Shown: positions 3,820 to 5,325 of the stretch, piece after piece
How the letters are laid out: each line of letters begins with the position of its first letter
Numbering within the stretch: position 1 is the stretch's first letter
Origin: a virus
Lineage: Duplodnaviria; Heunggongvirae; Uroviricota; Caudoviricetes
Length of the DNA stretch: 7,979 nucleotides
Virus record (IMG/VR): IMGVR_UViG_2526164652_000007
Strand: one strand, 5' to 3'
Notes under the pieces: model-generated
What the model was told of the DNA's origin: nothing
The model's database searches: none
The model's input: the letters and a program-made list of their open reading frames with translations, nothing else
Position numbers and translations under genes: made by a program

Positions 3820-3956
3820 TATTCATTCTTCCAGATTCCTTCCGGCAGAGCCTTATACTGAAATATACCTGGCTCAGGATATTGTTGAAAATATTATATA
3901 TTTGTCAAAAATAAAAGTTCTGTTAAGTATTGATTGAGTATTTGTTATACGGTCTA

Positions 3957-4283
3957 ATGTTTTTTTCAGCATTAAGTATTTATCATTCATATGGTGTGGG
4001 TAGAGTGAATATTGATGAGGCGTCGGGGTGTTTCATCCTTAGGCAGCGTATTGATATAGTCAATGCAGCACGAGCAAAGGCCTTCAGCCGTTTGACAGTT
4101 TTGTTCTGTACTCCTGATCGTCTTTCGGGAAGAGACGTTATTATTCTGAATAGTGATGCTATACAGAGGGTTTGCGATGAGTTCATGGTTGCTAATTCAG
4201 AATTATTTGCTCTTGTTCAGGAGTACAACAGAATAGCCAGGACCTGTGGTATGGATGAACTTCGGATTACTCATCTGGGGTAG
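3957..4283 (+). CDS. hypothetical protein (ORF A; 108 aa from ATG 3957, 117 aa if the TTG at 3930 is used); first gene of the cargo cassette
   Basis: Open frame 3930-4283 with stop TAG 4281-4283. No convincing SD before any candidate start (TTG 3930, ATG 3957, GTG 3996/4005). Hydrophobic N-terminus (YLLYGLMFFSALSIY). No family recognised. Confidence 0.45.
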   Translation: MFFSALSIYHSYGVGRVNIDEASGCFILRQRIDIVNAARAKAFSRLTVLFCTPDRLSGRDVIILNSDAIQRVCDEFMVANSELFALVQEYNRIARTCGMDELRITHLG

Positions 4284-4675
4284 ATACATATCTGGATTAT
4301 CACCTGTTACGGTAAAAAGTGATTGCTTACTGTTTTTGTGAATGGCATTGCAGCAGCCGGATAATGTCAGTGCCGGCTGACGGTGTGCTGGTGGCGGGTG
4401 TGGTGGTTGTTGCTTTCCCGTTGCTGAAAAAGAAAACGCCAGACTGTTAGCCGGGTATCAGTTAGCGGGAGAAATTTTTAAATACTTCACAATTCAGGCG
4501 GTTGACTGTTGTCTGGTTTGCGGGGAGTTTGTTAAAAGAAACTGGCATGGTGAATCCCCCTGTGCGGAGGGGCAATCAGCGAGTAGGTATATGGGATAAT
4601 CGCGGATTCAGGTGCTGGTACTGAATTCACCGGGAGGCACCCGGCACCATGCAATGGCACATAGCGCCACTCTCC

Positions 4676-4711
4676 AGCCCCTCTCCGGAGGGGCTGTTTA
4701 TATTGATTTTG
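4676..4711 (+). terminator. intrinsic-terminator-like hairpin at the end of the GC-rich intergenic island
   Basis: Perfect 8-bp stem AGCCCCTC (4676-4683) / GAGGGGCT (4688-4695), loop TCCG, followed by the T-rich tract GTTTATATTGATTTTG. The T-tract is on the plus strand only. Confidence 0.5.
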
Positions 4712-4730
4712 TCAGATGTGAGTAAACTCC

Positions 4731-5066
4731 TTATGGACTTTGTTGTTTTAGTCCATAAGGACATATTTGCAGAGTGCAACGGTTATTAAAGCATTCATTC
4801 AATACGTTATCTGTATTTGTAGGGCATTCCTGGCTGTTTTTGATTAAATTCCAGAATGTTTTATTGAATGGTACTACGTTGTAAATGGTTACAGGTAGCA
4901 CTTTGTTATTGAGTATGATGCCTGTGTGAGTCAGTGTAAATATACTTTCAGGAGGTAAGAAAGCATCCGATTGATACCAGATTATTAATTTTATTTTACT
5001 CCATATGACTGAAAAAGATATTCCGCATGATGGCTGGATAACTGTATCAATCACAATCCACTTCAT
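4731..5066 (-). CDS. hypothetical Cys-containing small protein (111 aa), AT-rich cargo gene convergent with ORF A
   Basis: ATG at 5066-5064 (minus) with AAGGAAA SD and a 6-nt spacer; stop TAA at 4733-4731. Product [18 protein letters not shown]...[34 protein letters not shown] has a C-terminal C-x10-C-x4-C-x4-C cluster. Local GC is about 25-30% by hand count. No family recognised. Confidence 0.6.
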
Positions 5067-5325
5067 TTAGTTTCCTTGTTTATGCCTTGCTGGTGATGTT
5101 CTGAAAAGTATAAATGATATTTTTGAATTAAACCATAGAGCAGAATTATTTTTCTGATGTTGTTTATTGTTTATTTAAATGCAGGGTGGTTTATATCTCG
5201 TCTTGTAGTTTATCCATGCATATCTGCTTGATAATCAGGTTTTTATTTAAGGTATGGTTTTGTGTTTTTTCTGTATTACATGTCAGGTATTTTAAAGAAT
5301 TATTTTTCAGATGGTGGAAAGAACC

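Follow-up and report, generated by a model that had tools for sequence, protein, structure and literature searches.

The 7,979-nucleotide (nt) stretch of DNA from the IMG/VR virus record IMGVR_UViG_2526164652_000007 (Caudoviricetes), hereinafter called the window, corresponds to the late-regulatory region in a defective, Shiga toxin (Stx) phage-like lambdoid prophage, and its positions 3820-5310 are the cargo slot between the late antiterminator gene Q and the holin gene. The initial annotation, made from the sequence alone, saw in this slot an unrecognised pair of small genes and the best candidate for a new module. The current analysis shows that this late-operon slot, very probably, is not a two-gene cassette: it is a mosaic made up of four independent units, all of them catalogued before. 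These would be a gene for a 92-amino-acid (aa) protein of the phrog_2873 family, located right after the phage tRNAs; a small membrane-protein open reading frame (ORF) of the tciB/DUF3927 type with an altered 5′ end; the gene for the prophage small RNA (sRNA) STnc100 with its own terminator; and an AT-rich moron containing iraL, with its own sigma70 promoter and a predicted start at position 5099 of the minus strand, opposed to the late operon. The whole interval is 99.06% identical (1477 of 1491 positions) to the chromosome of strain CFT073. The supposed new module is already known, as a published iraL moron beside a catalogued prophage sRNA. Thus, the slot that holds the Shiga toxin genes in the Stx phages is filled here by the gene for an inhibitor of RpoS proteolysis.

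The minus-strand ORF (4731..5066) encodes the 111-aa protein IraL, the anti-adaptor of RssB and a paralogue of IraM, as judged from its identity to the CFT073 protein and its matches to NCBIfam, PDB, and phrog_4407. It shares 110 of 111 residues and 335 of 336 nt (99.7% of the DNA) with CFT073 iraL. Residues 1-110 align with positions 1-113 of the 114-position NCBIfam model NF007393 (“anti-adapter protein IraM”) with a score of 162.3 bits against a cut-off of 121, and the comparison with the solved IraM chain (PDB 8twd) gives an E value of 3.8e-32 with 52 of 78 residues identical. In strain CFT073, which lacks iraM, the homologue of IraM is IraL, encoded by c1429 (Hryckowian et al. 2014, PMC4045071; locus tag from PMC12890032). 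In that work, iraL was told apart from iraM by at least 95% nt identity to CFT073 iraL along 100% of its coding region (PMC4045071), and by this measure the ORF at 4731-5066 is iraL and not iraM. Under 3820-5310 in E. coli, the Prokaryotic Genome Annotation Pipeline (PGAP) lists an “anti-adapter protein IraM,” a “DUF3927 family protein,” and a fragment of a pseudogene. The initial annotation could place neither ORF in any family and had tied its proposal to the outcome of family searches and to the intactness of the frames in related prophages. The minus-strand ORF proved to be nearly identical to a characterised gene of a well-characterised family, and the plus-strand ORF, conserved and intact in relatives, remains uncharacterised, with phrog_2873 as its only family.

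The upstream region of iraL could be aligned with published mapping data. The 5′ leader occupies positions 5067..5099 of the minus strand, with the transcription start at 5099 assigned from the mRNA end determined by rapid amplification of cDNA 5′ ends (5′-RACE; PMC4045071). Of the 32 nt reported, the first 30, ACATCACCAGCAAGGCATAAACAAGGAAAC, match positions 5099-5070 of the minus strand with 0 mismatches and occur only once in the window, with 0 occurrences expected by chance; the two bases that follow are TA in the window and CA in the published sequence. The AT-rich promoter and upstream regulatory region, with 28% G+C, extends over positions 5100..5310 of the minus strand, as judged from its composition and its identity to CFT073. 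Between −100 and +33, 131 of the 133 positions are identical to CFT073, as are 241 of the 244 positions in the segment 5067-5310. Because of the identity to CFT073, the exact match to the RACE end, and the conservation of the −100 to +33 region, the ORF at 4731-5066 is identified, at the level of sequence, as iraL with its native promoter, and the 28%-G+C segment 5067-5310 as its upstream regulatory region. At the other end of the gene, an inverted repeat of 12 nt without mismatches, its arms (TCCTTATGGACT / AGTCCATAAGGA) separated by a loop of 10 nt, spans the last iraL codons and the stop codon (positions 4728-4761). No T-run was found 3′ of this hairpin on the minus strand, and it may act as a stabiliser of the iraL 3′ end. 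The possibility that the STnc100 terminator also ends the iraL transcript was considered and rejected, since the minus strand has no T-run after the hairpin.

Studies of the CFT073 protein showed that IraL co-purifies with RssB and, in two-hybrid assays, binds only RssB's N-terminal domain; deletion of iraL lowers the log-phase RpoS levels in CFT073 and in Shigella sonnei, with the RpoS half-life falling from ∼5 min to ∼2.5 min, and the coding sequence with the −100 to +33 region alone, present in a single copy at attTn7, complements the deletion (PMC4045071). IraM was reported to remodel the helical linker of RssB (bioRxiv 10.1101/2023.01.07.523045). Expression of iraL increases upon mutation of fur and upon a temperature shift to 37°C (PMC7157518, PMC12890032). 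By analogy, the IraL encoded in the window can be expected to bind the adaptor RssB at its N-terminal receiver domain; once bound, RssB would no longer deliver RpoS to ClpXP, so that RpoS would be stabilised even in the log phase. These steps were demonstrated for the 99%-identical gene of CFT073 and S. sonnei (PMC4045071), and it is this 99% identity that suggests N-terminal RssB binding and a longer RpoS half-life for the window protein as well.

Because it has its own promoter, iraL is likely to be expressed in the lysogen whether or not the phage is induced. It could be shielded from rightward transcription in the uninduced state by the STnc100 terminator together with a tR′-like terminator, and Q-modified late transcription would cross iraL in the antisense direction only after Q has acted. 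Given that the holin gene is cut by IS600, the prophage can be viewed as a probable fossil in which iraL has been retained as a gene of the host: iraL stays intact while the prophage around it decays, with the holin disrupted and nanS-p gutted. The initial annotation, which placed cargo in the Q-to-holin slot and noted the shift in base composition, was right on this point: the AT-rich segment is host-fitness DNA gained by horizontal transfer, and the cargo is iraL.

The same annotation went further and proposed that the two convergent ORFs form one cassette, a new functional module such as a toxin-antitoxin, exclusion, anti-defence, or abortive-infection system, which now appears highly improbable. 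The slot is a known moron site, the plus-strand ORF (hereinafter ORF1) has no assigned function, and the two genes are often found together. In a megablast comparison of 3820-5310 with 5426 complete E. coli genomes, the whole interval was found at at least 99% identity in many strains; 1187 genomes contained the ORF1 segment, 1446 contained the iraL segment, and 863 contained the interval as one contiguous piece. In IMG/VR, 73 loci have ORF1 together with sufficient DNA downstream of it; iraL is present in 63 of them, a TolA-like pair in 4, and neither in 6. However, each ORF is found without the other, the two are separated by 447 bp that include the DUF3927 ORF and the STnc100 gene, and in relatives ORF1 is accompanied by tciA/tciB and a holin gene rather than by iraL. 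The function demonstrated for IraL requires nothing beyond the promoter and coding sequence of iraL (PMC4045071). The two genes are not neighbours and are not inherited as one unit. A search of PADLOC-DB gave 0 defence families for ORF1, IraL, the DUF3927 protein, and the DUF1737 protein, and no signature of a toxin or of an exclusion, anti-defence, or abortive-infection system emerged. ORF1 and iraL are therefore not a pair, and the mosaic of four units is the preferred description of the slot.

The mosaic structure is best seen in individual phages. Phage mEp460_ev081 has the segment 3820-4653 in common with the window, followed by two genes for TolA C-terminal-domain proteins in place of iraL. 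Phage vB_EcoS-640R1 shares 4351-5310, iraL included, without ORF1, and phage JLK-2012 shares only 4351-4652, located between tciA-tciB and nanS-p. In two diverged loci, L008 and L009, the ORF1 homologue is followed by a gene for a TerB-like (TciA-like) 141-aa protein, a DUF3927 gene, and a holin gene, with no iraL next to them. The alignments place the variable left junction at ∼4653, in the 3′ part of STnc100, and the right junction at the start of DUF1737/nanS-p. Because of these junctions, the iraL unit (∼4653-5310) is a discrete AT-rich insert, a typical moron. The truly variable point of the slot lies just to the right of STnc100, where iraL, a TolA-C-like pair, or other DNA can be found. 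The TolA-type cargo occurs in mEp460_ev081 (locus L002, 3998-4972) and in loci L014, L038, L065, and L080, with matches to Pfam PF06519 of 82.6 and 54.6 bits; it could interfere with the Tol-dependent entry of colicins or phages.

Several points weigh against the description of the slot as four independent, known units with IraL acting on RssB. The IraL protein of the window differs from that of CFT073 at one residue (I51 versus M), and its action in the source strain is expected from the 99% identity to the CFT073 and S. sonnei gene. ORF1 and iraL are linked in 63 of the 73 loci and, by this distribution taken alone, may be functionally connected. The GTG start of ORF1 at 4005 is deduced from relatives, with a weak Shine-Dalgarno sequence in the window copy.

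The region between the two ORFs was described in the initial annotation as a GC-rich, hairpin-rich island. Its G+C content equals that of the backbone: positions 4300-4720 contain 50.6% G+C (the STnc100 part, 55.3%) compared to 51.4% in the backbone at 1-3819, 38.0% at 3820-4300, 31.9% at 4721-5310, and 28.3% at 5067-5310. The island is thus rich only against its two AT-rich flanks; the hand-made G+C counts given for three 60-nt segments (17/60 at 4981-5040, 14/60 at 5101-5160, and 34/60 at 1201-1260) were exact. The island also contains two elements that had been missed. The first is an ORF on the plus strand (4319..4450) for a 43-aa small hydrophobic protein of the DUF3927 (Pfam PF13064) or TciB-like (phrog_1470) type, which matches positions 7-53 of the Pfam profile with 90.7 bits (gathering score of 25) and is named “DUF3927 family protein” by PGAP in MS6198 and CFT073. 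Homology to tciB of JLK-2012 starts at 4351, 32 nt inside this ORF, and its 5′ end is unlike that of full-length tciB; the sequence comparison places a recombination junction near 4351. No tciA (TerB-like) gene is present in the window, which thus lacks the arrangement of full-length TciB paired with tciA; relatives L008 and L009 do carry tciA.

The second element, located at 4516..4705 on the plus strand, is the STnc100 gene, which accounts for the “GC-rich hairpin island.” It matches the Rfam model RF02076 over its full length (positions 1-206 of 206) with 132.4 bits (gathering score of 47; E value of 8.7e-30) and is identical to CFT073 in all 190 positions. Its predicted fold has an energy of −74.6 kcal/mol (z score of −2.26). 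A terminator scan detected a 9-bp GC-rich stem followed by a T-run at 4675-4696, at the 3′ end of the match, so that STnc100 can be predicted to end in an intrinsic terminator. STnc100 is a prophage-associated sRNA family, structurally related to PasD and often found beside Q and downstream of stx2 (bioRxiv 10.64898/2026.05.13.724894; PMC12370729), and one copy lies 75 nt downstream of stx2 (PMC12370729). The minus-strand partial “hypothetical protein” pseudogene annotated by PGAP at ∼4535-4660 (L001 6716-6841) was discarded, as it lies wholly within the STnc100 match; it is likely an annotation artefact repeated in many RefSeq genomes.

ORF1 is the least characterised part of the slot. The maximal ORF (3930-4283, plus strand) starts with TTG and has an ATG at 3957 in the same frame; the 92-aa phrog_2873-family protein would be encoded at 4005..4283, starting with GTG. 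The two small convergent ORFs of the initial annotation exist and do converge, with the correction that the conserved core of the plus-strand ORF begins at GTG 4005 rather than at 3957. ORF1 matches phrog_2873 over the entire profile (positions 1-108 of 108) with 229.3 bits and has no matches in Pfam, NCBIfam, or PADLOC. An exhaustive hidden Markov model search of 1.8 billion representatives yielded 22 relatives at E values of ≤0.001. Among the aligned relatives, six full-length ones are 91-95 aa long, and their alignment to the maximal ORF begins at residue ∼26. Homologues are present in Citrobacter braakii, in a contig binned as a Bacillota metagenome-assembled genome (MAG), and in a Logan contig. 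In L008, an AGGAG Shine-Dalgarno sequence precedes the homologous GTG. The start of ORF1 is accordingly placed at GTG 4005, as the probable alternative to TTG 3930 or ATG 3957. In L008 and L009, a terminator-like hairpin with a T-run follows the ORF1 homologue, and L009 has one on the 5′ side as well. In a tblastn search of 50,697 phage records, mEp460_ev081 was the sole match. For the contig search, the 9-sequence alignment of the family was too diverged to seed patterns, and a 5-sequence alignment led to 3 loci.

It could be argued that ORF1 is a chance open frame in an AT-rich spacer and that the real content of the interval is iraL and STnc100 only. Among the matches listed for the 1187 E. 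coli genomes, all 29 full-length ones have no RefSeq/PGAP annotation under 3820-4300, ORF1 included; Pfam and NCBIfam have no family for this protein, the Shine-Dalgarno sequence is weak here, and the N-terminal 24 codons show no codon-position bias (12/10/12). However, codons 26-117 show an excess of substitutions at the third position (e.g., 19/19/40), and the ratio of nonsynonymous to synonymous substitutions (dN/dS) over the 92-codon core is 0.25-0.27 (Nei-Gojobori method, three unsaturated pairs with 60-63% aa identity). A PHROG family exists, and intact homologues with their own Shine-Dalgarno sequences and flanking terminators are found in C. braakii and other contigs. The core is intact in 80 of 80 IMG/VR loci, which are all 98-99% identical E. 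coli-type copies and thus bear on intactness and linkage without adding new contexts; the other two frames carry 7-15 stops. A chance origin is therefore improbable, and ORF1 is, on the evidence of its sequence, a real gene under purifying selection that was left unannotated by the RefSeq pipeline in more than 1000 complete E. coli genomes.

ORF1 is present in ∼22% of complete E. coli genomes; in Citrobacter-type prophages it stands beside tciA/tciB and the holin gene. The AlphaFold2 model consists of two long antiparallel helices that form a helical hairpin (predicted local distance difference test score of 72.5), and Foldseek searches of PDB and BFVD with this model returned generic helical hairpins only, none at E values of ≤0.001. 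When PDB sequences were searched with a profile of the ORF1 family, the best matches, UPF0335/GapR, had E values of ∼0.1, below significance, and were set aside as due to chance. As a small helical hairpin, ORF1 may regulate or inhibit some step when late transcription sets in, or it may have a part in exclusion. A more specific proposal would make ORF1 a cargo of interest in its own right, a small cytoplasmic helical hairpin working together with TerB-like TciA and the membrane protein TciB in superinfection exclusion or lysis timing and was orphaned by the deletion of tciA. The gene order in L008 and L009 (ORF1 homologue, TerB-like 141-aa protein, DUF3927, holin) agrees with such a partnership, as does the model with two long antiparallel helices, and the tciB homology that begins only at 4351 fits the loss of tciA and of the tciB 5′ end. 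However, these are only two diverged contexts, and in both the ORF1 homologue is a unit of its own between terminators, which speaks against coupling in an operon; neither the fold nor the sequence comparisons hint at a mechanism, and ORF1 is intact without tciA in ∼1200 genomes. A joint role with TciA and TciB is accordingly doubtful. The chance is slightly better, albeit still small, that ORF1 is an accessory protein used by the phage and working by a mechanism new to the literature, which would make it the sole truly unexplored element of the slot.

Two of the loci with ORF1 homologues deserve a separate mention. In L006 (164-889 of a Logan contig), a homologue with 55% identity is located directly 3′ of a gene for a 241-aa AraC-family regulator and 5′ of a DUF3927-like ORF and an STnc100 match, which represents a further cargo variant of the slot. 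L008 (JAEWMQ010000075.1; 2.7 kb), assigned to a “Bacillota bacterium” MAG, contains an ORF1-tciA-tciB-holin block of the enterobacterial-phage type, with the ORF1 homologue 62% identical to the E. coli protein, and its Bacillota label looks like a binning artefact.

The left side of the window contains genes for a DUF968 protein (1168-2217) and RusA (2230-2586), followed by the left backbone of the slot, a gene for a Q-type late antiterminator (2601..3422, plus strand; Pfam PF03589 Antiterm, 183.7 bits), whose counterpart in MS6198 and CFT073 is annotated as “antitermination protein.” A consensus scan revealed a terminator-like hairpin on the plus strand 3′ of Q (3503..3522), with a 7-bp stem that includes 5 GC pairs followed by the T-run TTTTATTG; it is a candidate for tR′. 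A Trp_leader match at 3423-3529, with 27 bits against a gathering score of 41, was dismissed as a chance match on the terminator hairpin. Two phage tRNA genes follow on the plus strand. The first (3566..3641; Rfam tRNA, 72.5 bits) has the anticodon CAT and is assigned to Met by ARAGORN and to tRNA-Ile (ileZ-like) by PGAP in MS6198 and CFT073; tRNAs of the ileZ type with this anticodon are decoded as Ile once modified with lysidine. The second is tRNA-Arg (TCT) at 3743..3819 (ARAGORN; Rfam, 68 bits). The 933W-like scaffold recognised in the initial annotation was confirmed: Q, two phage tRNAs, the NanS-p (DUF1737) remnants at 5311-5672, and the start of the holin gene at 5822-5885 are ordered on one strand, with nanS-p and the holin gene both truncated in the window copy.

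The right side of the slot is decayed. The right backbone is an internally deleted nanS-p esterase gene (5311..5672, plus strand) represented by an N-terminal DUF1737 ORF (5311-5514; Pfam, 62 bits) and a C-terminal ORF of 53 aa (5511-5672). The gene is judged to be internally deleted because the two ORFs match only the ends, positions 1-58 and 582-632, of phrog_143 (NanS-p, 634 aa); the deletion comprises ∼520 codons, and the same remnant is present in MS6198 and CFT073. In phage JLK-2012, this region aligns with the beginning of yjhS/nanS-p. The class II holin gene is reduced to its first ∼21 codons (5822..5885, plus strand), as seen from the alignment to the annotated MS6198 gene, with one mismatch (G/A near 5850) up to 5885, where the sequence diverges into the end of an insertion sequence (IS). 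This is a 1264-bp IS600 (IS3 family; 5885..7148, minus strand) located inside the holin gene, 99-99.7% identical to annotated IS600, with the matching annotation “IS3-like element IS600 family transposase” and an NCBIfam IS3 transposase score of 334.6 bits. Because the DNA to the right of IS600 is not the remainder of the holin gene, the lysis cassette has been lost by IS-mediated deletion or rearrangement.

Two more IS-related pieces are an IS3-family orfA-like fragment to the left of the DUF968 gene (387-725, minus strand; NCBIfam IS3 transposase, 55.6 bits, N-terminal part only) and the N terminus of an ISNCY-like transposase that begins at 7782. The presence of three different IS-related pieces in 8 kb suggests a Shigella-like, IS-rich host. 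A match to the sok antitoxin RNA was found at 7537-7708 on the plus strand (Rfam, 99.8 bits; gathering score of 59); no intact Hok-like ORF of ∼50 aa was seen near it, and it is probably a degraded hok/sok locus. None of the complete E. coli genomes holds more than 71% of the window contiguously. The prophage is thus decayed and IS-ridden, yet iraL, its promoter, STnc100, and ORF1 are intact.

Among the known systems, the closest one is the iraL locus of CFT073 (c1429), located in the potB-island prophage (PMC4045071), which has the same order of ORF1, DUF3927, STnc100, iraL, the DUF1737 remnant, and holin. It differs in carrying IS200C and three tRNA genes upstream and an intact holin gene and lysis cassette, whereas the window has two tRNA genes and a holin gene cut by IS600. 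IraM of E. coli K-12, which is induced by Mg2+ starvation (PDB 8twd), belongs to the same family, has the same target, RssB, with the same stabilisation of RpoS, and is likewise associated with a prophage (PMC4045071). In contrast to IraL, with which it shares ∼59% overall identity, IraM binds both RssB domains rather than the N-terminal one only; IraL acts in unstressed log phase, and its gene is located in a lambdoid late region, whereas iraM resides in e14 (PMC4045071).

The late region of the 933W-type Stx phages (Q, tRNAs, stxAB, nanS-p, S) has the same order of Q, ileZ-like and argO-like tRNAs, DUF1737/NanS-p, and holin, and it also has a copy of STnc100 in the slot. The window differs in the absence of stxAB, in the cargo, iraL, being on the opposite strand with its own promoter, and in the internal deletion of nanS-p. 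As a member of the STnc100/PasD family (RF02076), the sRNA of the window is typical in its full-length match to the model, its predicted terminal terminator, and its location near Q in a lambdoid prophage (bioRxiv 10.64898/2026.05.13.724894). The STnc100 of JLK-2012 differs from it in the last ∼50 nt and the terminator. Finally, the classical lambdoid morons, such as bor and lom of phage lambda, are single AT-rich genes with their own promoters that are inserted between backbone genes, expressed in the lysogen, and beneficial to the host. The products of bor and lom are surface proteins, whereas that of iraL is a regulator of host proteolysis.

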